A stretch of DNA of 64,000 nt from contig CBDCCZ010000004.1 of assembly GCA_965215005.1 (NCBI GenBank), positions 288,001 through 352,000 on the forward strand, in the 5' to 3' direction. Positions 14,113 to 64,000 of the stretch are shown one piece after another; position 1 is the first letter of the stretch; each line of letters begins with the position of its first letter. The translations under genes were made by a program, and so were the position numbers. Source of the DNA: Kofleriaceae bacterium (lineage in GTDB: Bacteria > Myxococcota_A > Polyangia > Haliangiales > Haliangiaceae). The notes beneath the pieces were generated by a model, which searched no databases, was not told the DNA's origin, and saw only the letters and a program-made list of their open reading frames with translations.

Positions 14113-14727
14113 ATGGGCCAGTTTTTCAACCTTCCCAATCTCGTCACCATGACCGGCATCGCTGCGGGCGTCGGCTGTGCCCTCTCCGCGGCCGCCGGAG
14201 CCGTCCCCGGTGCACTCGCTCTGCTGATCGTCGCCGGCATCTGCGACCTCTTCGATGGGCTGCTCGCCCGAAGAGTCGTCCTTACTGACCAAGCCCGACT
14301 CTTCGGAGCCCGCCTCGACAGCATCGCCGACATGGCGTCCTTTGGCCTCGCTCCCTCGGTGTTGCTCTATGCCGCCGGCCTGCAGTCGCCGCTGGAGGTG
14401 CTGCTCCTTATCCTCTTCACCGGCTGCGCCGCCTGGCGCCTGGCGTACTTCGATACCGTCGGTATGACGACGACCGGCACCACCAGCTACTACACCGGCT
14501 TGCCCACCACCTACGTAGCGCTCGTGTTGCCGCTCATGCTCCTCAGCGGCTTTCTAGGCGCGGCCACCATGCGGGTGATCGCAATCGTCACTGCTGTAAC
14601 GTTGGCCGCTGCCATGGTGAGCAGCGTGAAGATTCCCAAGCCGCGCGGCATTTGGTACCTCCTGTTTCCGCTGCTCGCCGTCGTGCTGCTCGTCGTCTAC
14701 GTATCCCTCGCCGACCGCTGGGGCTGA
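14113..14727 (+). CDS. pssA: CDP-alcohol phosphatidyltransferase (phosphatidylserine synthase PssA-like)
   Basis: LPNLVT; DLFDGLLARR...FGARLDSIADMASFG (DGxxAR...GxxxDxxxD); RLAYF...YTGLP. Confidence 0.8.
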   Translation: MGQFFNLPNLVTMTGIAAGVGCALSAAAGAVPGALALLIVAGICDLFDGLLARRVVLTDQARLFGARLDSIADMASFGLAPSVLLYAAGLQSPLEVLLLILFTGCAAWRLAYFDTVGMTTTGTTSYYTGLPTTYVALVLPLMLLSGFLGAATMRVIAIVTAVTLAAAMVSSVKIPKPRGIWYLLFPLLAVVLLVVYVSLADRWG

Positions 14728-49673: not shown

Positions 49674-50570
49674 ATGAGCGACTATGAAGACGAGATTCGC
49701 TACTACGACCGCGAGAGTGGCGAGATGCGCAGCGAGCGCGTGTTTGGGGGCGATGCGTTGCGCAGGCTGTATCGGACGCGGAGCGGTCGCTTCCTCACTG
49801 ACCGCCTGCTGACTCGAGGGCCGCTGAATCATCTCTATGGTTGGCTCAAGCGGGCGCCTTGGAGTGCGCGTGAGATCGTTGCGTTTGCCGATGGGCTCGG
49901 AATCGACGTGGAGGAAGCCGAGCGGCCGGTCGGTGGGTATCGATCATTGGATGAGTTCTTCACGCGTCGCCTGCGCGCCGGTGCGAGACCGATCGATCCC
50001 GATCCGGAGGCACTGCTCTCGCCTGGGGATGGTCGATTGCTCGTGTTCCCCGCGCCGGTAGGGCTGCTTCCGATCAAGGGAACACGTCTGTCGATTGCAG
50101 AGCTTGTCGCGGATCGCGAGCAAGCCGCTCGCTATGCAGAGGGCGATGTCGCGGTGCTGCGGCTTGCTCCGGCGGACTATCATCGGTTTCATTTTCCCGC
50201 GGCGGGTCGGGCTCACGCGCCGCGTGCGGTCGCGGGGCGATTGCACTCGGTGCATCCGATTGCGCTCACGGCAGGCGCGCCGAGCTTTGCCAATAAACGC
50301 GTGGTGACGGCGCTGGTCACACCGCTGTTTGGAACCCTGCAGCTCGTGGAGGTGGGCGCGCTGCTGGTTGGCACCATTGTGCAAACCTTCCGGCCCGGCG
50401 AGGTCGAGAGAGGCGCGGAGAAGGGCTACTTTCGGTTTGGCGGCTCGACGGTGGTCGTCCTAACTCCACCCGGCGTGCTGCGGTTTGACGATGATTTGGT
50501 GGAACGGTCGCGGCTCGGCATCGAGACGTTCGTCAAAGTCGGCACTCGCATCGGGCGGCGGCGCGGCTAA
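49674..50570 (+). CDS. psd: Phosphatidylserine decarboxylase proenzyme (long/archaeal-like type)
   Basis: FFTRRL...RP, SPGDG, RLAPADYHRFHFP, EVGALLVGTI, EKGYFRFGGSTVV (GST self-cleavage site). Confidence 0.92.
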   Translation: MSDYEDEIRYYDRESGEMRSERVFGGDALRRLYRTRSGRFLTDRLLTRGPLNHLYGWLKRAPWSAREIVAFADGLGIDVEEAERPVGGYRSLDEFFTRRLRAGARPIDPDPEALLSPGDGRLLVFPAPVGLLPIKGTRLSIAELVADREQAARYAEGDVAVLRLAPADYHRFHFPAAGRAHAPRAVAGRLHSVHPIALTAGAPSFANKRVVTALVTPLFGTLQLVEVGALLVGTIVQTFRPGEVERGAEKGYFRFGGSTVVVLTPPGVLRFDDDLVERSRLGIETFVKVGTRIGRRRG

Positions 50571-50672
50571 TTCGTCTGTTGCCAAGTACGCCGCTCTTGC
50601 CCGGCAACCGCCGGCGCACGCGCTAGCGGCACCTCGGCTTCCGCTGGCGCGCGAGTTGCTCTACGCCACAGA

Positions 50673-53291
50673 ATGTCAGCTGGCTCCTCTTCTGTACCGA
50701 ATCGCATCGCTAGTTCCGCAGAGGTCACCGTCATTGCGCTCGACCGGGCGGGATCGGCAGAGCTGGCGCAAGTAGGCGGCAAAGCGCAGTCCTTGGGCGT
50801 TTTGTTGGCTGCGGGCTTCGATGTTCCGGACGGCTTCGTTGTGACGGTTGCCGCATTCGAAACGGTCTTACAGGCCCCCGCGCTGGCAGCTCGAGTTGCC
50901 GCTGTAGAGACTGCATTGGTCGCCGGTGAGCTTCCCGATGAGTCGACACTCGCGGCGCTGCGCGAGGCGATTCTGGCGGTCGAGTTGCCGCCGGCGCTTC
51001 GTCAGCAGTTGGCCGAGGCGTACGGCGCGCTGGCAAATCCGCGGGTCGCCGTTCGTTCGAGCGGAAGCCGCGAAGATCTCGATGATGCGAGCTTTGCTGG
51101 TCAATATGAGACGTACTTGAATGTTCGCGGCGAAGTAGCTCTGGAGCGAGCGTTAAAACAGTGCTGGGCCTCGCTATGGCAGTCGCGGGTACTGCAGTAT
51201 GCATCGCGCCATCGCGAAGGTGCCAGCGGTCTGCGCATGGCGGTGGTGGTTCAGGAGATGGCCGCCGCCGAGGTTGCAGGCGTTGCGTTCACCGTCAATC
51301 CGCTCACCGGTCGGCAGGAAGAGATGCTTGTCGAGGCGGTGTTTGGTCTCGGCGAGTCGCTGGTATCGGGGCGAGCCAACGCCGACCGATTTGTGCTCGC
51401 GGCCGCCAATGGAGACGTTATGCAGCAGGAGCTTGCGGCCAAGACGCTGCAGGTCGTGCCCGTCGAGATAGGCGTGGAAGAGCGGCAAGTAGAGGGCGAA
51501 GAGGCCACGCGCGTCACTCTCACGGGCGAAGAGCTGCGCAAGCTCGCGCAGGTCTCTGCCGACATTCAAGAACATTACGGTCGTCCCATGGACATCGAGT
51601 GGAGCTTCGCAGCGGGGCGGCTCTACATCTTGCAAGCCAGGCCCATCACGCATCTGGCATTCGCAGCGGAGATCGGGCAGTGGACGACCGCCGATTTTCG
51701 CGACGGTGGCGTTTCCTCGGAGGTGTGTTCGCCTTTCATGTGGTCGCTCTACGAGCTTGCCTTGCAGAGCTCGATGCCGACCTACTTCAAAGCGCTCAAG
51801 CTGATCCCGCAAGACCACGAAGCGACGTGGGCACGGATGTTCTTCGGGCGTCCGTACTGGAATCTCAGCGAAGTGAAGCTCGGCCTAGAGCGGATTCCAG
51901 GTTACAGCGAGGATAGCTTCCACGCCGATCTGGGTGTCGATGTCGACAGGGAGTTCGAGGGCAAGAAAACCCGCACGACGGTGACGGGCGTGCTCCGCGC
52001 GCTGCCTACGCTGTTTGCACTCAAGCGCAACTATCGCGAGCGGTTGGGCCAAAATCAGGCGTTCTTGACCCAGTTCGAGGAGCGCAAAGCTCCGTTCGAC
52101 ATTTCCGCCGCCGACATAGCGGCTCTCGACGACGAGGCGTTTTTGCGCTCCTATGCAGAGCTCATCGAAGACCTCTATCGAGACACCGAAACTTCCTACT
52201 TCTACACCATCTACAACACCTCGAACTCGAAGCTCGACTTCAAACCGTGTTTCGAGAAGGTCAACGCGTTGGCTGGCGGCAGTCTCGATGAGCCGACGCT
52301 GCTCACGGGTCTGCAGAACTTGTCGCATCTGCGGCCGATGAAAGACCTACATGCAGTAGTCGAGGCGGTGCATCAGCGCGGCGGCGAAATCGACGACGCG
52401 CTGGTGGCGGAGTTTGCGCATCGCTGGCGTCATCATGGACGCCGCGAGCTCGATATCCGCGTGCCCCGTTGGGATCAGGATCATGACTATGTTCGCGACA
52501 TGCTCGAGGCTGCTCTCGAGCACCACGACGCTGAGCGCGACCCCGCCGAAGTTGAACGCCGGCACGTACAAGCGCATTCCGCAGCGTTGTCAACTGCGTT
52601 GGCGCCGCTGCGTTGGCGACCGCTGCTCCGCCGTTCGTTCATTGCTAAGCTCGAACTAGTTCGACGCTATGCTTGGTGGCGCGAAGAGATGCGCGACTGC
52701 TCGAGCTTTTTGTACTACTTGGTTCGCCAATGGACAGTCGATGCCGCACGCCGTCTAGTCGCGGCAGATATGCTCGCGTCCACCGATAGCATTTGGGCGC
52801 TCTCGTTCACGGAGGTTCTGCAGGCGCTGCGGGGCGCACTGAGCTCAAGCGAGGTGAAAGCGCGGGCGGCGTGCGGCGAGCGGATGATGCGCTCGTATCG
52901 CAACTTCGCCAATCCCAACGAGATCGGCTCGCATTTCCGTTTCGCTCGCGAGCAGTCGCCGCCTACCGAGGGCGCGTTGCGCGGTACCCCATGCTCGCCA
53001 GGACGCGTCACTGGGCGCGCCCGCATCATAGGCAGCCTAGAAGAAGCGCACTCTCTCGAGCCGGGCGACATCCTGGTTACGCGCTTCACGGACCCCGGCT
53101 GGACTCCGCTGTTCGGTCGCATTCGCGCTGTCGTCACCGAGACCGGCGGCGTCTTGTCTCACGCTGCGGTCATCTCACGTGAGTACGGAATTCCCGCGGT
53201 GCTCGCTGTCTCCGGCGCCACCGAAGCCATCGTGGACGGCACAACCATCACCGTCGATGGCTGCCAAGGCATCGTCGATCGCGGCGACTGA
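50673..53291 (+). CDS. PEP-utilising/PPDK-family phosphotransferase (RPH/PigC-like three-domain architecture)
   Basis: VGGKA, VAVRSSG.EDLDDASFAGQYETYLNV, DIEW...LQARPIT; large helical middle domain; C-terminal TETGGVLSHAAVISREYGIP phospho-His swivel. Confidence 0.88.
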   Translation: MSAGSSSVPNRIASSAEVTVIALDRAGSAELAQVGGKAQSLGVLLAAGFDVPDGFVVTVAAFETVLQAPALAARVAAVETALVAGELPDESTLAALREAILAVELPPALRQQLAEAYGALANPRVAVRSSGSREDLDDASFAGQYETYLNVRGEVALERALKQCWASLWQSRVLQYASRHREGASGLRMAVVVQEMAAAEVAGVAFTVNPLTGRQEEMLVEAVFGLGESLVSGRANADRFVLAAANGDVMQQELAAKTLQVVPVEIGVEERQVEGEEATRVTLTGEELRKLAQVSADIQEHYGRPMDIEWSFAAGRLYILQARPITHLAFAAEIGQWTTADFRDGGVSSEVCSPFMWSLYELALQSSMPTYFKALKLIPQDHEATWARMFFGRPYWNLSEVKLGLERIPGYSEDSFHADLGVDVDREFEGKKTRTTVTGVLRALPTLFALKRNYRERLGQNQAFLTQFEERKAPFDISAADIAALDDEAFLRSYAELIEDLYRDTETSYFYTIYNTSNSKLDFKPCFEKVNALAGGSLDEPTLLTGLQNLSHLRPMKDLHAVVEAVHQRGGEIDDALVAEFAHRWRHHGRRELDIRVPRWDQDHDYVRDMLEAALEHHDAERDPAEVERRHVQAHSAALSTALAPLRWRPLLRRSFIAKLELVRRYAWWREEMRDCSSFLYYLVRQWTVDAARRLVAADMLASTDSIWALSFTEVLQALRGALSSSEVKARAACGERMMRSYRNFANPNEIGSHFRFAREQSPPTEGALRGTPCSPGRVTGRARIIGSLEEAHSLEPGDILVTRFTDPGWTPLFGRIRAVVTETGGVLSHAAVISREYGIPAVLAVSGATEAIVDGTTITVDGCQGIVDRGD

Positions 53292-53364
53292 TTGCACGAG
53301 CGGAGAGCGGGCGGAGCGCGTGCTCCGCTAACCGCTCGCTCTGCCGTATCGCTAGTGTGAGCGC

Positions 53365-55251
53365 TCAGGCCGGCTCGCGGCGACGCTTGAGCGTTTGCCG
53401 CAGCTGCATGAGCAAGTATCCAGCGCCCGAGCGGACGAACACGCCACCCAGATCAAGTTTGGTTTGCCGCGGTGCCATCAGCGAATCACTGAGATAAAGC
53501 TGACGACACGCGTTGCGTTGGCGCTTGCCGCTAGAGGTTTTGGGAATCGCGCCGGGTTCGGTGAGCACGACCTCTTCGAGGTTCACCCCGCACTCTCGTA
53601 GCACCGCCTCGGCGACGCGAGCCGAAAGTGCCACTCGCTTGTCCGAGTCACTGATGCGCGTCTCGCACACGAGAACCACCAGGTCGCGCGCCTCGCGGTC
53701 ATCATAGACTGCGAACGCAACGGTGGCGCCGGCGCGGACGCCTTCCACGGTCTCGGCCGCACGCTCCAAATCTTCTGCATAGTAGTTGCGACCTTGCAGG
53801 ATGATTAGATCCTTGGCGCGACCAGTGACGTAAAGCTGGCCATCCGACACGTAGCCCAAATCGCCAGTCCACAAGCTGCCCTCGCGAAGCACCTTAGCAG
53901 TGGCTTCCGCATCTCCCCAGTAGCCACGCATCACCGAGCGACCTGATACTACGACGTGGCCGACCTGGTTCTCGCTAAGTTCTCGACCGTGCTCATCCAC
54001 CACCGCCAATCCTTGGCCGGGGACTGCGCGCCCGACGCTCACGAGCGTTAGCGCACCGGCGCCTTCTGCCGGCACGACGTGGCCATTGGCGAGCTGCTCG
54101 CGATCGACCGTTTGGTGGGCAATCCGGCGGTGCGGCTCGGGGAACGCCGCGGCCAAACTGACTTCTGCAAGACCGTACGCTGGCAGTATCGCCTCGGCGG
54201 AAAATCCATGCGGCGCGTACGTGGAGACAAACTGCTCAACGGTTGCCAGATTCACCGGCTCTGCACCGTTAGAGGCGACGCGCCAGCTCGACAGATCGAG
54301 CCCCTCACGCTGCTCGCGCGACACGCGCTTTACCGCCAACGCATACCCGAAGTTGGGCGCAGGCGATAGCGTGGCGCGGTAATCCGAAATCGCGCGCAGC
54401 CAGCGATGAGGTCGCGCCAAGAATGCCGTGGGAGACATGAGCACGAAGGGCAAACGCCAGTACACGGCGAATAGCAGCGCGCCGATGAGACCCATATCAT
54501 GGTACAGCGGGCACCAGCTCATCACCACATCGTTGCGCGAGACCTCTAGAGCCTGACCCATCGTGTGGATATTGGACACTAGGTTGTCGTGGGTCAGAGT
54601 CACGCCTTTGGGCTTGCCCGTGGAGCCAGAGGTGTATTGCAAGAACGCCGGCTCACTGGCGCTGGCGCGGAATTTTTCATCAAGCACGCTACTACGGGCG
54701 AGCTGAGCCGCCGTTACCACGCGAGTGATGCATGGCGCGCGAAGTCCCAAATCGCCGAGTAGACCGGATATATCGGCACAAGTGACGCAAACCGTTGCCT
54801 GCGAGTGGTTTGCGATATGCGCGAGCTTGCGCAGCCCAGCCTCCAATCGTAGACCCGTTGGCGGGTACGCCGGAACTGGAATGGCTCTCAGCAGCTGGAC
54901 GGCGAAAAAGGCTTCGACAAACTCAAAGGATGTTGGCAGCACGAGGAGCACGCGGTCACCGGCAGAGACTCCGAGCTCGCGAAGCCCGCGGGCGATGCGG
55001 CGAGCACCATGATAGAGCTCGCGATAGGATCGGGTCTGGGCTGGACGATTTTCGCGCTCCGGCAACAGCGTGATGCCGCGGTCCGCTTCTAGTCGTGCCG
55101 CTTCCGCGAACGCATGCAACAGGGTTGGGTGATATGGCTCGAGCTCTGTTGGAAGCTCGGCTTTGCCGCTTGCCCACGCTCCGGTACGGAAGCCTGTTTG
55201 CTCGTGGCTCGGAAAGCTCGAGCGAAATTGTCGATTGAGGGACGGGTTCAT
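53365..55251 (-). CDS. Fatty acyl-AMP ligase (FAAL)
   Basis: AFLQYTSGSTGKPKGV, WCPLYHDMGLIG, NGAEPV, PAYGLAE, TGDLG, GRAKDLII, IPKTSSGK. Confidence 0.92.
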   Translation of the reverse strand: MNPSLNRQFRSSFPSHEQTGFRTGAWASGKAELPTELEPYHPTLLHAFAEAARLEADRGITLLPERENRPAQTRSYRELYHGARRIARGLRELGVSAGDRVLLVLPTSFEFVEAFFAVQLLRAIPVPAYPPTGLRLEAGLRKLAHIANHSQATVCVTCADISGLLGDLGLRAPCITRVVTAAQLARSSVLDEKFRASASEPAFLQYTSGSTGKPKGVTLTHDNLVSNIHTMGQALEVSRNDVVMSWCPLYHDMGLIGALLFAVYWRLPFVLMSPTAFLARPHRWLRAISDYRATLSPAPNFGYALAVKRVSREQREGLDLSSWRVASNGAEPVNLATVEQFVSTYAPHGFSAEAILPAYGLAEVSLAAAFPEPHRRIAHQTVDREQLANGHVVPAEGAGALTLVSVGRAVPGQGLAVVDEHGRELSENQVGHVVVSGRSVMRGYWGDAEATAKVLREGSLWTGDLGYVSDGQLYVTGRAKDLIILQGRNYYAEDLERAAETVEGVRAGATVAFAVYDDREARDLVVLVCETRISDSDKRVALSARVAEAVLRECGVNLEEVVLTEPGAIPKTSSGKRQRNACRQLYLSDSLMAPRQTKLDLGGVFVRSGAGYLLMQLRQTLKRRREPA

Positions 55252-57947
55252 CAGGCTCTGTTCTCCTCGATAATGAAGCCATGCATCCGTGCTAAGTCGC
55301 GTGCCCGGCGCACTTGCAGCGCCCGAAGTGGGCCATACGAGAAGTTCTCTCGAAGTCCCGCCAACCCGAGCAGCACCGTCTCGGCCAAGCAGCCATAGAG
55401 CTCGCCCGGACGTAGCGACAGCTCCTCGAGATCAACTGTTTGTCCGAGCGGCGCGCGCACCATGCCGCCTTTGAGCACCACGGCATTAGGACGCTCGTGG
55501 CTTACTTGCGGCGCCACGTCTCTTGGCACCGCGACATCGGAAATGATGACCGTGCCGGTGCCGACGTGCTCGGGCAACACCACGGGTTCCGCGGCATTGG
55601 TGGCAGAGACGATGATGTTGCAGTCGCGCAGCGCCCCCATGTCAGTTGCAATCTCGATTTTCGGCCTGCCGGCGTCGCGAGCGATGGCGTCGCGGGTGCG
55701 TTCCAGCCGGCGCTGCGCACGCGGCTGCCCGACCAGCACCAGCTCGTCCACCGCCTCGGCAGCGACCTCCGCCAACACCGCGCCAATGTTGCCAGCGGCG
55801 CCAACCACGCCCAGCCGCAACTGGCGCAGGTCGCGGCGTTTTGCCGCCAACAGTGCCGCCTCGAGTGCCGAGGCGGCGGTGAGCGAGTTGCCGCTGGTGA
55901 TGCCGATGTCGGAGGCGACCACCGCTCGGCAGTTGTTAGTGAGGATTGACGTGTAGCCGCCAAAGCCGACGGCGGAGCAGCCAAGGCGCCGCGCATACGC
56001 TACGCCGCGATGGATGAGATCGAGGATGACGTCGCCGTTGCCCTGCCGGAGCCCCAGAAGGGCCTGCTCTGGGGTGAACGCAAGTCCCAGCACGGTCACC
56101 GTCACGCGATTGCCGAGGGCTGATTCGATCTCGCTTTGGCCGACGACGAATGGCTCGATGGCGCCGGTGGTGCGTCCCAAGAACTGCGCGCACTCGTTGT
56201 CGCTGAAGTCGCCCAGGGTCGGGTCCCAGGAGCGAAGGGTGCCTGGCTCGAGAAAGTGCGCGAGAAAGCCTACGTGCGCCTGGCCCGGTCGACTCGGACG
56301 GGCGGCGCGTTTAGGCGGGGCACTCGGAGCGGGTTTGCTCCGCGTCGAACGCGCGTTGCCCACTAAATAGCGACTGAGCAGGCTGGCATCAGAGCATCGG
56401 AGCGCCTCGCAGGCGCGCTCGAGGGCAGCGCAGAAACGATCGAGCGCGGCCTCTTCGATGAAGGCGGAAGGTTGCAGTCGAAGCGTGGCACCCGCTGATA
56501 GCGTGGGCAGCACGCGAATGCGTTCTTCATGAAGGAAGTACCCAGCAAGAAATTGTCCCAAGCGATCCTGCTCACCGAGCACACGCAACAACGGGCTGCG
56601 GGAATCCTGCTGCGCACCGAGCTCGATGCCGAGCATCAGCCCACGGCCGCGAACCTCGACGATTTGGTCTGGGTAGCGGCGCTGCAACTCCTCGAGGCGA
56701 CGGCGCAAATATTCGCCCTTGACGCGGCACTTGAGCAAGACCTCGTCGCCCTCCAGTACATCGAGTGTGGCATTGGCCACCGCCGCCGAAAAATGATCTT
56801 CGGCGTAGGTTGACGTATGGACGTAGCCGAAGTGCGGCTGGTAGCGCTCTCGATCGACGAGTAATACGGCAATCTTTGCGAGGCCGCCGCTGAGCGTCTT
56901 TGCAAGGGTGTAGTAGTCACCGCGAACGCCCGCGGCCTCGGAAGCTAAGAACGTGCCCGTTCGACCCATGCCAGACTGTATTTCATCGATGATCAACGGG
57001 AACTCCGCAGCGTCGGCGGCGGCGCGCAGCGCTCGCAGGTACGCTGCCGGCACTTCTCGAACCCCGCCTTCCCCTTGAATTGGCTCTACGAAGCAGGCAG
57101 CGATGTTGACCACATGCCCGGTGGTCAGCCGCGCCACGCCGTGGTCGTCGAGCTCGAGCATCGGATACGCGAGCGTCTCTGTCGCCACCACCTGCGCCAG
57201 CGTTGACTCGTCGCCAACCGGCAAGAACAACACCCGCGGCCCCAGGTGCTGCCAGGCGGTTCGCATTTGCGGATTGTGGGTGAGCTGCAAGGCGCCGAGG
57301 GTCTTGCCGTGAAACGCGCCTTCTAGGGCGAGCAGCAGCGGGCGTTGCTCGAGCGCATCGAGGATCGCTCGCGAGAGCCGGAGCATGAGCTCATCGAGAG
57401 TGTGAATGGCCTCGACACCGAACCGCCGGGCGGCGTCGCGAAACAAATCCTCCGGCAGCACTGCCGTCTGTTCCCGTAGCCGTAGCCGCAGCTCATGGTG
57501 GCGACGCTCGAGCTCGTCTTGCACTGCCTGCCAACGGAGCCGGCGCTCGAGCTCGGCGTGCTTGATCGCTGCCTCGATAGCTTCGGCGCCGGAGTTGGTG
57601 AACGTCGCAACATACTCGCGGTTGGTGACGCTACCCAGCCGCGCGGCTAAGCGTTCGGCCAGTACGCCAGCCTCGCCGCGGGCACTGCCCTGCGCCAGGA
57701 ACGGCCGTTGCTCGTCCAGGACCCGCCGTGCAGCGGCGACCAGTGTTGGATGATTATGACCGAGAAGGGTGGCGCCAAATCCACCCACGAGATCGAGCAC
57801 CGCGACCTCGCTGCCATCGGCTTGGCGAAAGTAGAGCGTGTCGCCTTCGCCACGCTCATATTCGAAATCGAGCGCGAGTGCCCGGAGCCGCTGCATGAGG
57901 GTTGGCTTGACGAACTGCTCGTAAGCCGCACGACGCTCGCTGCTCAT
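55251..57947 (-). CDS. Class-III aminotransferase fused to an acyl-ACP-reductase-like domain (TamH-like)
   Basis: FTNSGAEA, AFHGKT, VEPIQGEGG, IIDEIQSGMGRTG, LAKTLSGG (PLP Lys); C-terminal GFGGYTSI, TSGNSLT, GVVGAAGNIG, DVAVPRD, YGCLAET (AAR-like catalytic Cys). Confidence 0.85.
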   Translation of the reverse strand: MSSERRAAYEQFVKPTLMQRLRALALDFEYERGEGDTLYFRQADGSEVAVLDLVGGFGATLLGHNHPTLVAAARRVLDEQRPFLAQGSARGEAGVLAERLAARLGSVTNREYVATFTNSGAEAIEAAIKHAELERRLRWQAVQDELERRHHELRLRLREQTAVLPEDLFRDAARRFGVEAIHTLDELMLRLSRAILDALEQRPLLLALEGAFHGKTLGALQLTHNPQMRTAWQHLGPRVLFLPVGDESTLAQVVATETLAYPMLELDDHGVARLTTGHVVNIAACFVEPIQGEGGVREVPAAYLRALRAAADAAEFPLIIDEIQSGMGRTGTFLASEAAGVRGDYYTLAKTLSGGLAKIAVLLVDRERYQPHFGYVHTSTYAEDHFSAAVANATLDVLEGDEVLLKCRVKGEYLRRRLEELQRRYPDQIVEVRGRGLMLGIELGAQQDSRSPLLRVLGEQDRLGQFLAGYFLHEERIRVLPTLSAGATLRLQPSAFIEEAALDRFCAALERACEALRCSDASLLSRYLVGNARSTRSKPAPSAPPKRAARPSRPGQAHVGFLAHFLEPGTLRSWDPTLGDFSDNECAQFLGRTTGAIEPFVVGQSEIESALGNRVTVTVLGLAFTPEQALLGLRQGNGDVILDLIHRGVAYARRLGCSAVGFGGYTSILTNNCRAVVASDIGITSGNSLTAASALEAALLAAKRRDLRQLRLGVVGAAGNIGAVLAEVAAEAVDELVLVGQPRAQRRLERTRDAIARDAGRPKIEIATDMGALRDCNIIVSATNAAEPVVLPEHVGTGTVIISDVAVPRDVAPQVSHERPNAVVLKGGMVRAPLGQTVDLEELSLRPGELYGCLAETVLLGLAGLRENFSYGPLRALQVRRARDLARMHGFIIEENRA

Positions 57948-58192
57948 CGAGCATCCCGCTTTGCATCCACCAGCGCGGCGAGGTCCCGAACGGTAACCAC
58001 TTTCGCTAACGCTGGATCATGCTCGCTGATTTCGATGTCAAACTGGCCTTCCATCGCCAAGATGAGATCCAGCGAGCGAACTGAGTCGAGGCCATAGCCA
58101 AGGAGGTTGCCGTCATCGCGGATCACCTCGCGCTCGACTCCGCACACGGTGGCAAGCTCGCATTTGACGGCTGTGAGTACTTCATCAGACAT
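57944..58192 (-). CDS. Acyl carrier protein
   Basis: YGLDSVRSLDLILAMEGQFDIEI (phosphopantetheine Ser); GGAG RBS; stop overlaps the next start. Confidence 0.88.
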   Translation of the reverse strand: MSDEVLTAVKCELATVCGVEREVIRDDGNLLGYGLDSVRSLDLILAMEGQFDIEISEHDPALAKVVTVRDLAALVDAKRDAR

Positions 58193-58221
58193 GCTCAACT
58201 CCATTGGCGAATGCGCATCAA

Positions 58222-58855
58222 TCACAGGTTTTTTCGTATGGAAGCAAGGCGAAGTGCAGCGTTGATCACGAGGTGCAGCACCGTGAGCGTGAGCGTGCCC
58301 GCGACTGCAATGGTCCAGGAATAGCCAAAGGCTAACGCACCGAGAAAAAGGGCGGCGATGACGCTGTCGGCTTGATCGAGAACAAAAAAACCAGCTCCTG
58401 CCACTCCAGCGCCCCGCTTGCCGGGAATGATGTCGATGCGGCGCCTTGAGAAACGAATTGGGTAGCTCGCCCAGTGCGTAGCCAAGGCCAAAGATCGTGT
58501 TGACTATCGCGTAGCCCACAGCGAAGGACGTCCAGCCTTCGGGGGCGCGAAAGGCGCTACCCACCGCCGAGTACGCGATCAGCTCGAGCCCTGCGCTGGC
58601 GGCCCATGCGCCGCCGACGGCACCTTGCACGAATCCGACAGCAGCGCTGCCGACGATCATGAAGCACACGCCACGCCACGTCTTGTTGTCGCCGAAGATT
58701 CGCTTGCCGCGAAAGCTCCGGCCGCCGTCGAGCGGTAGCTTGAAGGCCGGGAACAAGTCGAGCTTGACCACGACCATATGCAAGATGCCGGTCAACGCGA
58801 CGGCACTGGCGAGCCAGAAGACGGGTCCACTAAAGGCGATAGCTAAGAAATTCAT
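58222..58855 (-). CDS. CDP-archaeol synthase (CarS/DUF46)-like cytidylyltransferase, frameshift near 58445
   Basis: PLDGGRSFRGKRIFGDNKTWRG, GELPNSFLK; removing one base gives RRIDIIPGK...FFVLDQADS; multiple TM segments. Confidence 0.78.
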
Positions 58856-58869
58856 CGTACATTCCCTCG

Positions 58870-59862
58870 ATGATCGATTGTCACGCGCATGCATTCCCTC
58901 GTCTGGATGAGTTGGTTTCTCGAGTTCCTGGCTCTGCAGCGGCCGTGGCTGCCTCGCTGGTGCGTGGTGGCAGCGGCGCGGTCACCGCGGTCGGCAAAAT
59001 GCTTCGGAACGTGGTGCCTCGCGATGAGCGGCCGCCGGCGCTGGGCATCGAGCGAGTCGCGGCAATGCGCCAAGCTCGCTCCGACAAAGCCAATCGAGTC
59101 ATCGAAGGCACGCTGGCTACCGTGGCTGCACCGGCTATGCTCGCCACCGGTGGCGTTTCGCAGCTGCTTGCCTCCATGGAGCGGCATCAGCTCGCGGCGA
59201 CGGTACTGATCGGCGCGCCTCCCATCGCGAGCAACGCCTGGCTTCTCACCGAGGCGGCTCGATGCTCGCCGCGCTTGATTCCGGTGACCACCATGCCCGA
59301 GCTCGACCCCGCAGCGAACGCCAACGCGTGGCAGGCGGCATTCGAGAAGCTCGCAGCGGAAGGCGCACAGGGCTTCAAGATCCACCTCAACATGGATGGG
59401 CTGTCGCCGCAGCATCACGCGTACCGGAGCCTCTTTAAAGTGGCCAGCGACCGCGACTGCTTCGTCATCGTTCACACCGGTTGCTTTCATGTGCCCTCGT
59501 ATCACCGCCACGGACCGATCGAGCCCGGTGAGCTCGAGCCGCTGCTTCGCGAATTTCCCGACGTACGGGTGTGTTTGGCGCACATGAATCGCGAGCGGCC
59601 GGAAGCGGCTTGGGAGGTCATGGAACGCCATTCTCAGGTCTTTACGGACACCAGCTGGCAACCGGCGAGCGTCATACGTCAAGCAGTCGATCGGGTCGGC
59701 ATCGACCGCGTCTTGCTCGGCTCCGACTGGCCGCTGCTTCACGCAGACCTGCAAGGTGACGCACTGCAGGTGTTGCGGAAGGCGGTATCGGCTGAGGAGG
59801 TCGAGCAGATTGGTCATGGCAATGCGAAGCGTTTTCTCGGTCGGGCGCTCGTCTCCGAGTGA
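58870..59862 (+). CDS. Amidohydrolase-2 family metal-dependent hydrolase
   Basis: IDCHAH, GFKIH, VHTG, LAHM, DTSW, VLLGSDWP. Confidence 0.88.
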   Translation: MIDCHAHAFPRLDELVSRVPGSAAAVAASLVRGGSGAVTAVGKMLRNVVPRDERPPALGIERVAAMRQARSDKANRVIEGTLATVAAPAMLATGGVSQLLASMERHQLAATVLIGAPPIASNAWLLTEAARCSPRLIPVTTMPELDPAANANAWQAAFEKLAAEGAQGFKIHLNMDGLSPQHHAYRSLFKVASDRDCFVIVHTGCFHVPSYHRHGPIEPGELEPLLREFPDVRVCLAHMNRERPEAAWEVMERHSQVFTDTSWQPASVIRQAVDRVGIDRVLLGSDWPLLHADLQGDALQVLRKAVSAEEVEQIGHGNAKRFLGRALVSE

Positions 59863-60246
59863 CCCTCCGCTAGCCGGCGCGCGAGCCTCAATGCACCCAG
59901 CTGACGACGAGCACCAGTAGCGCCGCCAGAATCATCCACGAGCCGAGCGCCGGCCAACGGCGCGCTCGAGTCATCGTTCCCACCGCCGTCCATTCCCCAT
60001 TCACGTTTCGATACTTCACTGTCATTGCGAGCCACCAAGGTTGCACTCGCTATGCCACGGGCAAATGCCGTAGCGGCGTTGCTCGAGCCCGCTTTGCCGC
60101 GCAACTCGGGTGGCTAGTGTAGCCACCGCGAGGGCGGTCATGAACCGAGGTGGCGGGCTCGATGGGCCCGTTTAGGGCGGTTCGCTGCTTGCACTGCGTC
60201 GCGCTGCCCAAGTTATTCAGTTCCTAACAAAGGAAGTTACTGCATC

Positions 60247-61053
60247 ATGCGACACGTAAATTTCACCGCCGCAGGCACCTTTGCGCTTGCCTTGCTTTCG
60301 CTGCCTCTACTTGCATCGGCGGACAAAGGCAGCAAGCGCACAAGCGGCAATGAGAGCGCGGACGCCATCGTCGAGCGGATGCTCGACATCGACCCGCTGA
60401 CGTATGGCGGCGCCGAAGCCAACGTCCAGATGATCCTCGTCAACGGCCGCAATCAACAGCGGAGCCGCGACGTCGTGATGTTGAGCCGCAAGGATGGCGA
60501 TGAGCGGCGCACCTTTATTCGCTTTCGCTCGCCCAGCGACGTGGCCGGGACAGCGTTTCTCGGACTGGATGACGATGGCGATCGCGTCCAGCACCTGTTT
60601 CTGCCGGCGCTCGGCAAGACCCGTCGGATCTCGACCAAGCAACGCAACGCCAGCTTCGTTGGCAGCGACTATACCTACGCCGATCTCGACAATCGCGATA
60701 TCGATGACTCGAAGCGGAAACGCCTCCCAGACGAGACGTTGAGCGGCAAGGACTGCTACGTCATCGAGCTCGAGCCGACCTCGAAGGAGAGCGAGTATGA
60801 AACGATCAAACTGTGGCTCGCAAAAGAGAGTTACTTGCCGCTCGCCATTCGTTACTTCGATGGCAAAGGCAAGGAGATGAAGCGCTTCGTCGTGACGTCG
60901 GCGAAGAAGCACGACGGTCGCTGGGTCATCGAACAATCGAAGATGGTGGATCTCCGGAAGAACCATGCAACGGGAATGAAGCTCACCGCGATCCGCTTCC
61001 GCAGCGACATCTCCCGCGATCAGTTCACGATCCAGGCGCTCGAGCGCGAGTAG
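60247..61053 (+). CDS. Outer-membrane lipoprotein-sorting (LolA-like) protein
   Basis: Signal peptide; F.SPSDVAGTAFL...LFLPALGKTRRIS...SFVGSDYTYADL. Confidence 0.85.
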   Translation: MRHVNFTAAGTFALALLSLPLLASADKGSKRTSGNESADAIVERMLDIDPLTYGGAEANVQMILVNGRNQQRSRDVVMLSRKDGDERRTFIRFRSPSDVAGTAFLGLDDDGDRVQHLFLPALGKTRRISTKQRNASFVGSDYTYADLDNRDIDDSKRKRLPDETLSGKDCYVIELEPTSKESEYETIKLWLAKESYLPLAIRYFDGKGKEMKRFVVTSAKKHDGRWVIEQSKMVDLRKNHATGMKLTAIRFRSDISRDQFTIQALERE

Positions 61054-61056
61054 TCG

Positions 61057-62757
61057 ATGCGTTGGTTTACGGTCGTGGTGTTGATCTGCGCTGGGCGTAC
61101 GGCGCTAGCGCAGACGGCCTCCGCCACTCCCCCCGCGGCCAATGAAACGCTGACTCCGGCGGTCGTCGAGCGCGGCGCGGCGCGGCGCTCGGCAGGGCGT
61201 CTGGCGGCCGAGCCCGCCATCACGGCTGACGATGCGAGCTCAGCGCCAGACGAGGGCGGCGATAGCTTCACGATGAGCGCGGGCCTTGACGATGTCGGGC
61301 CGCAGCTGGAGCTCGACTCGGCGCCGATCGTGACTCTTGATGAGCCGGCGGTTGAGAAAAATCCGGGAATCGAGATGTCCGCGCTGCTTTACGCTCGCGC
61401 GGGCACCGACCTCGTTCATCAGCCCGGCGCCGCCAGTGGTTCCACCTCGGTTCCCATCGGCGAGGACGTGCTGTCGTTTCGCGGTCACGCTCGCGCCGAG
61501 GCCACGAGCCGATACCAGCGAATGCTCAAGCTCAAGTTGTCGGGCCGGCTAGACGCCGAGTGGGGCATGGACGCCGACTCGCGTTTGGACGTCGAGCGCT
61601 ACGAAGCACGTCTGGGTGAGACCTATGTCGACTATTTTGGCTCGGGCCTCAGCGCCCGTGCAGGCAATCAAGTCATCGTTTGGGGCACCGCAGAGCTCAT
61701 TACTCCCAACGATGTCGTCAATCCGCGCGACCTGCGGCGAGGCTTTCTCGAGCGCGCTGACGAGCTGCGCCAGCCTGTCGTCGCTCTCGAGGTGAGCGGC
61801 TTTCACGGTCCCGCGTATCTCACTGGAGTGTGGGTTCCGGTTCCCGCCAGTCATCGAATGGAGCTTCTAAACAGTGATTTCGCGTTGCTTGGACCCAGCG
61901 CCCCGAGGCTCGAGCGGTCAATAGGTACGGCGCTCCAGCGGCTGAAGGCCGATCCGGAGCTCGGGCCCGCGCTGGCTCCAATGCTCGAGCTCGATGGCAG
62001 CTCCTCGTTTGGCATTCAAGATAGTGAATTGGGTGCTAGTGCCGGCTTTCATTTTCGTCATCTAGATCTACTTTCGTACTTCTTTTGGGGGCATGAACGG
62101 AGCCCGCGCATCGTGATCGCCGAGGAGCTCGCGACGATGCTCGCTACAGCGCCCGCGGAAGCCCTCACGCCAGAGCAACTGGCCGATGCGGTTGGAGCGC
62201 TCGCGAGGCAAGGTGTGGTGGCGGTCGCGAGCGATTATCCGCGGCGCGTCCACACGGGAGGTGCCTTGGCGACTCGCCTCGAGCCAATTGGCATCAAGCT
62301 CGATGTTGGCTACACGTTTGGTGCGACGGCGCCGCTGACTCGCGAAGGCGGCGGTTTGCTGGCGGCCGAGTCGCGCCAGCTCGACCGAGCGAGCGGCACG
62401 GTGTCGCTCGACTATCAGCGCGGCGCATTCATGGTGGTGGCGGAAGGAAACGTCACGCGAGTGCTCGGCGTTCCGGCCGGCGCGGACGTGTATCAGATGC
62501 ACGGCGCAAGCGCGTATCTCGCCGCCGCGCGAATCGACTGGCGGCCAGCGGCGAGCGCTATCTCGATGAGCCTGCTTTCGTTCGTTGATGTCGCGACCAC
62601 GCCATCGTACGCGGTGCGACCGGCGATTCGCTTCTCCGGTCACGACCACATCTCGCTAGAGGCGGCCGCCATTCTCTATGAAGGCCCTCCAGACACGCTG
62701 GCAGGCGCCGCCGACCGCAATGACGAAGTGGTCTTGACGGTGGAGCTCGGCCTCTAA
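61057..62757 (+). CDS. Putative outer-membrane beta-barrel protein (DUF1302-like)
   Basis: Signal peptide; RLGETYVD...RAGNQVIVWG...DVVNPRDL; alternating strand pattern; coupled to the LolA-like gene. Confidence 0.7.
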   Translation: MRWFTVVVLICAGRTALAQTASATPPAANETLTPAVVERGAARRSAGRLAAEPAITADDASSAPDEGGDSFTMSAGLDDVGPQLELDSAPIVTLDEPAVEKNPGIEMSALLYARAGTDLVHQPGAASGSTSVPIGEDVLSFRGHARAEATSRYQRMLKLKLSGRLDAEWGMDADSRLDVERYEARLGETYVDYFGSGLSARAGNQVIVWGTAELITPNDVVNPRDLRRGFLERADELRQPVVALEVSGFHGPAYLTGVWVPVPASHRMELLNSDFALLGPSAPRLERSIGTALQRLKADPELGPALAPMLELDGSSSFGIQDSELGASAGFHFRHLDLLSYFFWGHERSPRIVIAEELATMLATAPAEALTPEQLADAVGALARQGVVAVASDYPRRVHTGGALATRLEPIGIKLDVGYTFGATAPLTREGGGLLAAESRQLDRASGTVSLDYQRGAFMVVAEGNVTRVLGVPAGADVYQMHGASAYLAAARIDWRPAASAISMSLLSFVDVATTPSYAVRPAIRFSGHDHISLEAAAILYEGPPDTLAGAADRNDEVVLTVELGL

Positions 62758-62781
62758 AGCACGAGCTCCACTGGCGTCGCG

Positions 62782-63750
62782 CTAGAGCCCGAGATTCAAA
62801 GTCAGGCCGCGGTCGATGATATAGGCGACCGGAACCGCGAACGAAATCGCCATCGTGATGAGCTCGCTCACGGGGCGCAGCTCGGCACGAGCCGGCGTTG
62901 GTGCCGCCAGAAACTGGGCGGCGCGGCCAATCGCGAGGCAGCCGACGACGATGGTGATTCCGGCGCCAAGCCAGCCAAACCCGGCGCGCATCAGCGTCCA
63001 TGCGACACAACCCGTGGCCACAGTCCAGAACAGGATGACCATGGCGGTCGCAACTCGCCATCCAACGATCTTCGAGTACGTCGTGTAGTCGGTCTCCTGC
63101 TCCGGCAAGCGAATCTTCCGCGACCACTCCCATGCTGCTAACGGCATCCAAAGGCCGATGAGGAGCACGAGAATATCCACTACGGCCGCATCGCGGGTGA
63201 AGTCGGCTTGGAACAGAACCAACGCGTATACGAGCATGACCGCAACGAGCGGATTATGCGTGATGAACGCTAACAGCAAGTTGCGCTGCATCGGTGGATA
63301 GAAGAACCAGCGAAATGATGCGTAGGTAAGACCAAAGCAGACCAGAAACGCCACGAAGGCGCTGCTCGGGAAGAGCGGTAGGTTGATCGCGAAGAGCAGC
63401 GCAGTCGTTAGCCATCGCAGCCAAACGATATCCTCGACACGGACCTCTCCGGTCACGATCGGTCTGTCCGCGTAGCGCGGGTCTCCGGCACGTCCAAGCC
63501 GCAGGTCTGTCTCGACGTCTTTGAGCTCGTCATAGACGCGCAGCAGTAGCGAGAGCAGGACGAACGTGACTGCACCGATAACCGAGCGGGTGGTGAGCGA
63601 AATCGGCGCGTATCCAGCGAGCGCTTGTAGCGACCCGTAGAAGGCGGCGAAGTACATCAGGAACGCAGGCACCATTAGCACCGGCGGGAACATGTACTGG
63701 AGGTATCGGGCTATACGAATGAATCGTGATCGACTGGCTGGTTTGTTCAT
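62782..63750 (-). CDS. UbiA-superfamily prenyltransferase-like membrane protein
   Basis: LRVYDELKDVETD...RPIVTGEV Asp-rich motif, EWSRKIR...E...TYS; multiple TM helices. Confidence 0.78.
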   Translation of the reverse strand: MNKPASRSRFIRIARYLQYMFPPVLMVPAFLMYFAAFYGSLQALAGYAPISLTTRSVIGAVTFVLLSLLLRVYDELKDVETDLRLGRAGDPRYADRPIVTGEVRVEDIVWLRWLTTALLFAINLPLFPSSAFVAFLVCFGLTYASFRWFFYPPMQRNLLLAFITHNPLVAVMLVYALVLFQADFTRDAAVVDILVLLIGLWMPLAAWEWSRKIRLPEQETDYTTYSKIVGWRVATAMVILFWTVATGCVAWTLMRAGFGWLGAGITIVVGCLAIGRAAQFLAAPTPARAELRPVSELITMAISFAVPVAYIIDRGLTLNLGL

Positions 63751-64000
63751 TGGGGGCTCCGTTCGTTTGGTCCCCTTTATGCAAACCCGCTGCCTGTTCG
63801 ATGCGAGCGAAATTTCCTAAAACGGCGCAAAAACGGGCTTGCTGGGCGATCTGCGTGGCTTCTTTAGTTGCCAGCAAAGCGGCTAACGCTGCCGCCGGAG
63901 GAAACGCTGGACCCTGTCCGCCGGTGCACCGCGCCCAGGCGGCTTTCGCGTTCAACCTCGACCCCAACGAGCTTGCAGGCTCTGCGAGCGCAGGAAGTGG

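Follow-up and report, generated by a model that had tools for sequence, protein, structure and literature searches.

Gene content and extent of the locus

The stretch analysed here, referred to as the window, comprises 64,000 nucleotides of Kofleriaceae bacterium DNA (contig C4:288001-352000 of genome G000; 6.2 Mb assembly, 62 contigs, 92.8% complete) and carries towards its 3' end a putative lipid biosynthetic cluster. Ten genes had been named in an earlier, sequence-only reading, and all are real. On the plus strand, psd (49674..50570) encodes a predicted phosphatidylserine decarboxylase (PF02666, E 6e-47) with a GGST motif at residue 256, presumably of the self-cleavage type, and is followed by dikinase-1 (50673..53291), an RPH-type phosphotransferase with ATP-grasp, substrate and His-swivel domains (PF01326 and PF00391). 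These genes converge on a minus-strand run consisting, in order, of a CarS-like cytidylyltransferase (58222..58855), an acyl carrier protein (ACP; 57944..58192; PF00550) with its DSV serine at residue 37, a TamH-like fusion of a class III transaminase and an acyl-ACP thioester reductase (TA-TR; 55251..57947; PF00202 and PF01488) and a fatty acyl-AMP ligase (FAAL; 53365..55251; PF00501), whose best NCBIfam match, PRK09192, reached 458 bits against a cut-off of 600. The families and places of all these genes agree with the earlier reading.

Beside this run lie an accessory Amidohydrolase_2 gene (58870..59862, plus strand; PF04909) that was recognised in only one other cluster (G228), a LolA-like periplasmic carrier (60247..61053, plus; PF17131, E 2e-53) and a DUF1302 protein (61057..62757, plus; PF06980, E 1e-9) which we take to be an outer-membrane barrel. 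A UbiA-fold membrane transferase (62782..63750; PF01040, PRK13592) follows. These neighbours had also been reported and are present, with the correction that the UbiA-like gene lies on the minus strand.

Inspection of the genes beyond 64 kb showed the single dikinase of the earlier reading to be an incomplete account. Open reading frames of L001, the stretch continuing past the window edge (L001 position p corresponds to window 61999+p), place a divergent intergenic stretch (63751..64000) between the UbiA-like gene and dikinase-2 (L001 2011-4749, plus), which matches PRK06241.2-2 over its full length with 697 bits (cut-off of 883 unmet). Pfam matches then identify a 371-aa GNAT (L001 4763-5878, minus), an MMPL exporter (L001 5943-8450, plus) and two doubtful cluster members, DUF445 (L001 8368-9588, minus) and a PlsC-like protein (L001 9676-10569, minus), after which come NADH dehydrogenase genes. 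DUF445 and PlsC were never recovered beside related clusters and were dropped as core genes. A search of the PDB with the GNAT sequence returned no meaningful match.

The family assignment of the CarS-like gene stands (PF01864 and PRK04032 match on its two halves), and one surplus base near 58444, unnoticed previously, splits it into two frames. Both halves align to the intact CarS of G228, and the orthologs are intact in 7 sequences. The sole Logan contig spanning 58444 is without the extra base, so the latter is likely an assembly error; this contig has a depth of 4.4, ends 16 nt away and possibly derives from the source sample.

A displaced serine step was located within the window. The PssA-like CDP-alcohol phosphatidyltransferase (14113..14727, plus; PF01066) has archaetidylserine synthase as its best NCBIfam match (100 bits, cut-off of 240 unmet) and is 49% identical (E 7.5e-35) to its counterpart in the G228 cluster; with the G228 query, G000 gave just one further match, at 32% (E 2.8e-5). 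By sequence comparison it is the ortholog of the in-cluster gene. The CDP, serine and ethanolamine tail proposed earlier is thus represented at the family level by CarS and Psd, and even the PssA step lies in the window. Approximately 35 kb of BREX, SIR2-HerA and helicase genes separate the PssA-like gene from psd, and because these defence genes intervene, insertion of an island is suggested to have split a pssA-psd-dikinase-1 unit. No flanking direct repeat delimiting the island was present among the 20 largest repeat families. The island itself (15971-47535) encodes BREX PglW (partial match), BrxC, PglX, PglZ, BrxL, SIR2-HerA, a second PglZ, BrxD and an Lhr-like helicase, and holds an element we take to be IS66-like, with a second copy on contig C3.

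Recurrence of the gene set in other genomes

The gene set is common to bacteria from several phyla, and the clustering of these genes exceeds chance, because other genomes hold the set in new orders. In G228 the TA-TR and 13 shared genes (ACP, CarS, amidohydrolase, FAAL, PssA, both dikinases, MMPL, LolA-like, barrel, psd, GNAT and UbiA) are arranged differently, together with a P450 and an acyl-CoA dehydrogenase. Similar sets were found in a Planctomycetota metagenome-assembled genome (MAG; L019) and in G311, G016, G1201, L129 and L198. Co-occurrence elsewhere, which the sequence-only reading had left to be checked, is therefore borne out, with the genes rearranged or scattered.

A sample of 250 Planctomycetota genomes contained 13 strong carriers of the UbiA family besides the centre genome, 3 weak carriers that were left out of the counts, and 234 UbiA-negative genomes. 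A close TA-TR was present in 12 of the 13 carriers, the dikinase-1 core (E<1e-40) in 11 and CarS in 11, often split across contigs. Among UbiA-negative genomes, a close TA-TR was found in none of the first 60 (3 distant matches) and CarS in one of the first 31, weakly. As the carriers may be kin, these counts do not constitute a statistical test.

Given that parts of the set also occur alone, two or three separate lipid modules (an amine synthase, an ether maker consisting of dikinase-2 and UbiA, and CarS/PssA/Psd) could be merely co-located, with the amine never entering a phospholipid. G015 and G024 (92-93% complete) have only a dehydrogenase-ACP-fusion-FAAL arm, with no UbiA or dikinase-1 found; G422 has dikinase-2 and UbiA, with neither fusion nor dikinase-1; and loci L262 and L299-L304 carry dikinase-2 and/or UbiA with no fusion nearby. 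This explanation is very unlikely when set against the co-occurrence of 12/13 versus 0/60, the interleaved gene orders of related clusters, the fusion of the amine synthase with dikinase-1 described below, and the position of CarS, which in G000, G228 and G031 lies directly next to the ACP or the fusion.

Loci L262 and L299-L304 form a second family in their own right. They encode an AMP-binding enzyme, an HMG-CoA-reductase-like or SDR reductase, a formyltransferase and PEMT or DUF3419, and represent a candidate alkyl-ether lipid route.

Within the phylum of the window the UbiA family is rare (5/401 genomes) and the reductase domain was found in 15/401. A plasmid search gave no UbiA match and one partial reductase match. 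Among 301 genomes of the Nocardia phylum, mostly small, only G433 had a close reductase domain; distant stand-alone acyl-ACP-reductase-like frames of ~370 aa were seen in 19 (L240-L258).

A predicted fatty amine arm

The FAAL, ACP and TA-TR correspond to the amine-forming part of tambjamine synthesis in Pseudoalteromonas tunicata (TamA, TamH, TamQ), with which they share adenylation, ACP and fusion functions, domain order and catalytic residues, in addition to a nearby RPH-type enzyme. TA-TR matches CrmG at E 2e-86 and PigE over both domains, and its residues K350, G716xxG719xxG722 and C853 are invariant in 37/37 aligned homologs. By comparison with the published residues, these correspond to K340, GxxGxxG (G707-G713) and C887, the catalytic residues of TamH (PMC9594044). 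The same paper describes in vitro conversion of fatty acids to amines by TamA and TamH, for which see also bioRxiv 2025.08.11.669332. Homology and intact catalytic residues uphold the TamA/TamH-like arm of the earlier reading, and the likely product of these genes is a long-chain amine derived from a fatty acid.

The fusion occurs often (804 matches among 8000 candidates) and mostly in other gene contexts, its nearest named full-length homologs being in Deltaproteobacteria and Planctomycetes MAGs. At 21 metagenome TA-TR loci of at least 15 kb, FAAL was present in 11 and a dikinase in 2; therefore the fusion alone does not predict the pathway. A scan of genome contigs with the full fusion alignment was dominated by ordinary aminotransferases, both domains being present in 5 among the 80 loci listed.

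The cluster differs from that of tambjamine in lacking bipyrrole genes, in its separate FAAL and ACP, in having two RPH-type enzymes of other subfamilies and in its phospholipid head-group and lipid-export genes. In agreement with the earlier reading, no bipyrrole (MBC) genes were found in window 44-64 kb, nor were any present in the following 18 kb; upstream lies the defence island. On contig C3 a PigA-like dehydrogenase (451 bits, cut-off 500) adjoins an adenylation gene. This pair was rejected as part of the pathway, being on another contig and absent from five other carriers; PigA-like matches in 5/5 other cluster genomes were generic only, at no more than 266 bits. No AONS protein of the size we take PigH to have was found in G000, whose two AONS-like genes are stand-alone (397 and 411 aa). 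The C3 pair belongs to an unrelated small biosynthetic locus (G000:C3:335515-341187; L234/L235) with PigA-like, adenylation, small carrier-like, GNAT-like, ectoine-synthase-like and arylamine acetyltransferase genes. A P450 on C3 was likewise rejected as a cluster member, its neighbours being unrelated.

Several other amine synthase arrangements were encountered. Adenylation-transaminase-reductase fusions of ~1500 aa (L015:10013-14488 and L125:1059-5564) are candidate one-protein fatty-acid-to-amine enzymes, with DUF3419 following the fusion in L015. Remoter TA-TR fusions at L020:9917-19748 and in several of L137-L194 probably belong to another amine-lipid pathway; behind that of L020 come three genes for B12 radical SAM enzymes and one for a GNAT, and GNAT-like neighbours of distant TA-TR recur in several metagenome loci.

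Two distinct dikinases

The two dikinases are 28% identical and fall in separate clades with support of 1.0 (three partial or duplicate rows dropped from the tree). Among solved structures dikinase-1 best matches rifampin phosphotransferase (5HV2/5FBS), the match spanning its N- and C-terminal domains; its centre matches Rph_4th clusters, and His830 is invariant in 9/9 sequences. Both proteins share the ATP-grasp, substrate and phospho-His domains of the His-swivel phosphotransferases RPH, PigC, RedH, HapC and Cj1418. They differ in scoring below every curated cut-off, and no lipid substrate is mentioned for those enzymes in the available parts of the sources. Against the RPH model dikinase-1 and dikinase-2 scored 387 and 330 bits, both below the cut-off of 999, and a role in RPH antibiotic resistance was rejected. 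A search with PRK06241.2-2 of 251 Bacillota-group and 5 chosen genomes gave 0 matches and was uninformative, as the controls were likewise silent.

Gene neighbours at up to 1.5 kb also separate the two. Of 20 dikinase-1 loci, 8 had CarS, PssA, psd or DUF3419, 6 had TA-TR and none had a P450, the remaining 6 being short or otherwise flanked. Across 23 dikinase-2 entries, which count one Nocardia gene twice and leave out any UbiA gene that scored under the limit or lay across a stretch border, UbiA was present in 9, GNAT in 9, P450 in 6 and CarS/PssA in none. In three loci (L025:9944-15904, L151:8345-14209 and L142:8411-14173), one of them a Nocardia, a single open reading frame of ~1950 aa joins TA-TR, dikinase-1 and a thymidylate-kinase-like domain, and a second thymidylate-kinase-like kinase follows it. 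Since a nucleotide-monophosphate-kinase fold (in the fusions) and a cytidylyltransferase (elsewhere) both need a monophosphate, dikinase-1 is probably a lipid kinase making a lipid monophosphate rather than a TamQ-like condensing enzyme. The earlier wording, 'phosphorylated or condensed', is thereby narrowed in favour of a kinase, since dikinase-1 keeps company with the head-group genes and in three loci shares a polypeptide with a second kinase. In G1132 and G432, which have no CarS, DUF3419 adjoins dikinase-1. We take DUF3419 to be the betaine-lipid BtaA family, and its position fits a shared acceptor group that takes either phosphate or aminocarboxypropyl. The Nocardia cluster (L259) continues with SPT-like, nucleotidyltransferase, HAD, DAG-kinase-like and SDR genes.

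The fusion of dikinase-1 directly behind the amine synthase in these three loci, and their adjacency in three more, would also accommodate a phosphoramidate lipid, in which dikinase-1 places its phosphate on the nitrogen of the alkylamine (or of a dialkylamine formed by dikinase-2 and UbiA), CarS forms a CDP-amidate and PssA and Psd build an N-P-linked serine or ethanolamine head. Such a route would make an extra hydroxyl source unnecessary. However, P-N lipids are acid-labile, and the GNAT, which most UbiA-bearing clusters retain, would be a competitor for the amine. Dikinase-1 is also far under the cut-off of PRK05849 (62 bits), a model presumably linked to Cj1418. A precedent for N-phosphorylation exists in Cj1418, formerly annotated as PEP synthase/PPDK and described as an N-kinase in PMC10971088, but its substrate there is the amide of glutamine and no alkylamine. 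On balance this route is rather unlikely.

TamQ acts as the condensing enzyme of tambjamine synthesis, and in an analogous scheme one dikinase would condense the fatty amine with a partner that is a carbonyl compound or an acid (with glycerate, for instance, the product would be an N-glyceroyl alkylamine) or make a secreted small molecule, while UbiA adds an ordinary prenyl group. RedH and PigC models are among the top NCBIfam matches, and the UbiA fold is tied closest to DGGGPS. HapC has the same three-domain design (PMC13534948), and N-glyceroyl alkylamine lipids are known from Thermus and Deinococcus (PMC3398001); PMC13274423 also bears on this scheme. Against this, neither dikinase reaches half of the PigC or RedH cut-off (dikinase-1, RedH 413/1350 and PigC 381/1300 bits; dikinase-2, 319/1350 and 314/1300), the PigC, RedH and RPH models match in two stretches and the best covers the ATP domain only. 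There are no bipyrrole genes beside the cluster, the head-group genes track dikinase-1, and the T. thermophilus and D. radiodurans controls had no strong dikinase-2 match. Condensation in place of phosphorylation is thus unlikely, though a condensing role for dikinase-2 could sit within the best model, given below.

N-glyceroyl alkylamine phosphoglycolipids (Thermus, Deinococcus and some Bacillota) resemble the proposed lipid in being membrane lipids with an amide-linked long-chain alkylamine, and differ in that the amide extends the head group of an ordinary diacylglycerol phosphate. T. thermophilus was the only one of the 14 controls to match the PigE model (E<=1e-120), and the gene concerned is a candidate for the alkylamine synthase behind its N-glyceroyl alkylamine lipid. 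In D. radiodurans there was no match at this threshold.

For dikinase-2, distant loci that pair it with UbiA and have no TA-TR encode an acyl-activating enzyme together with a different reductase, which has the HMG-CoA-reductase fold in L303 and is a male-sterility SDR in L304. Because of these reductases and the P450 link, dikinase-2 is suggested to phosphorylate a fatty alcohol that serves UbiA.

A divergent UbiA-fold protein

The predicted model of the UbiA-like protein (pLDDT 94.8) has the UbiA membrane fold. Foldseek matched it to DGGGPS 6M31 (E 1e-4, TM 0.62), and DGGGPS and ApUbiA (Aeropyrum UbiA) tied as nearest folds (VIA Z 18.4-18.5, rmsd 3.1-4.1 over 258-274 residues, 12-16% identity); the UbiA profile gave 0 matches against PDB sequences. 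Motif 1 is intact (D74-x3-D78-x3-D82). The motif-3 region is basic and Asp-poor (E208-x2-R211-K212-x-R214-x4-E219) and invariant in 37/37 sequences, where PMC9385802 gives D180/D183/D187/D190 as the second Asp-rich motif of MjDGGGPS, the two regions being matched by sequence position with no superposition. A fair inference from the altered motif is that the enzyme takes a changed donor, for example a monophosphate. A Condensation/PapA-type acyltransferase adjoins UbiA or dikinase-2 in L292, L293, L296 and L260.

The likeness to archaeal phospholipid synthesis therefore holds at the level of families and fold: UbiA is tied closest to DGGGPS and is accompanied by CarS-like, PssA-like (best match archaetidylserine synthase) and Psd proteins. 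The 'archaeal-style' label does not extend further, as motif 3 is without the DGGGPS aspartates, the chains would come from fatty acids via FAAL and ACP, and the phosphate would come from the dikinases. No GGGP synthase (PcrB family) was found in the 92.8% complete G000 (0 matches; the same search was positive in 5/14 control genomes), which sets the pathway apart from the archaeal one. The pathway is neither that of tambjamine nor that of archaea.

Proposed pathway

In the best model, in which roughly even confidence is placed, the predicted product is a phospholipid analogue that has two chains, one of them supplied by the fatty amine, is free of glycerol esters and would bear first a phosphoserine and then a phosphoethanolamine head. 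FAAL would load ACP, and the fusion would release an aldehyde and aminate it, as the strong TamA/TamH homology indicates. The scaffold module, made up of the GNAT, dikinase-2 and the UbiA-fold enzyme, is the least certain. In it the GNAT may attach a hydroxylated acyl unit to the amine, and dikinase-2 may form an alkyl phosphate from a fatty alcohol (supplied by the reductase or, in relatives, by a P450), from which the UbiA-fold enzyme could move the alkyl chain to the amide hydroxyl, giving a diacylglycerol-like two-chain amide/ether lipid with one free hydroxyl. From its neighbours and fusions, dikinase-1 would phosphorylate this hydroxyl to a phosphatidic acid analogue. By family chemistry, the CarS-like enzyme would add CMP, the PssA-like enzyme swap in serine and Psd decarboxylate, and transport of the lipid outwards would fall to MMPL, the LolA-like carrier and the DUF1302 barrel.

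The N-acylation step resembles that of bacterial sphingolipid synthesis (Spt, bCerS, CerR), where an N-acyltransferase acts on a long-chain amine, and differs in that the cluster has no Spt, the two AONS-like genes of G000 lying elsewhere, and its amine would come from reduction and transamination. Each of two sphingomonads has a single distant homolog of the GNAT (22% identity), which may be bCerS, a protein whose role is described in PMC11087976.

A number of observations weigh against this pathway. UbiA enzymes use diphosphate donors, usually allylic, and no precedent for a saturated alkyl monophosphate donor was found in the literature searched. CarS, PssA and Psd pass their Pfam cut-offs and fall short of the NCBIfam equivalog cut-offs, and the CarS frame is broken in the present assembly. 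None of the cluster genes would supply carbon for the scaffold core. Dikinases are scarce at the metagenome TA-TR loci, the co-occurring Planctomycetota are possibly related, G050 is a UbiA carrier with no fusion, and G015, G024 and G422 hold partial sets. Nocardia sp. CNY236 has both dikinases, with UbiA and GNAT not found and SPT-like, SDR and DAG-kinase-like genes added; the scaffold therefore varies.

The evidence is stronger for amine formation and for the head-group tail than it is for the scaffold. Genes, motifs, conservation and the linkage of modules are observed, and all of the chemistry is deduced from them. More broadly, the cluster is tentatively, and with the balance against it, a further glycerol-free route to membrane phospholipids, in addition to those of the bacterial esters, the archaeal ethers and the sphingolipids, in which a fatty amine and an alkyl phosphate would be joined by His-swivel dikinases and a UbiA variant using non-allylic monophosphate donors and finished by an archaeal-type CarS, the boldest form of this idea having a P-N-linked head.

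Discussion

The enzyme families and the CDP, serine and ethanolamine tail are of known kinds, while the route that builds the backbone fits no known pathway. The gene set does not pass the defining tests for tambjamine, archaeal or RPH systems and is regarded as a new pathway with an unproven product. No description of it was found in the literature searched, a search mostly outside subscription journals and partly judged by title or the start of the abstract.

A testable function is hereby offered for three orphan groups: the bacterial CarS-like proteins, the divergent UbiA family and two families of RPH-type dikinases. TamH-like amine synthases occur widely beyond pigment clusters, and those described here hint at the origin of the Thermus alkylamine lipids. 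The cluster is an indication that uncultured Planctomycetota, and members of the window's own phylum, have a nitrogen-containing membrane lipid not described so far; Nocardia sp. CNY236 is a cultured carrier of a variant of the pathway.

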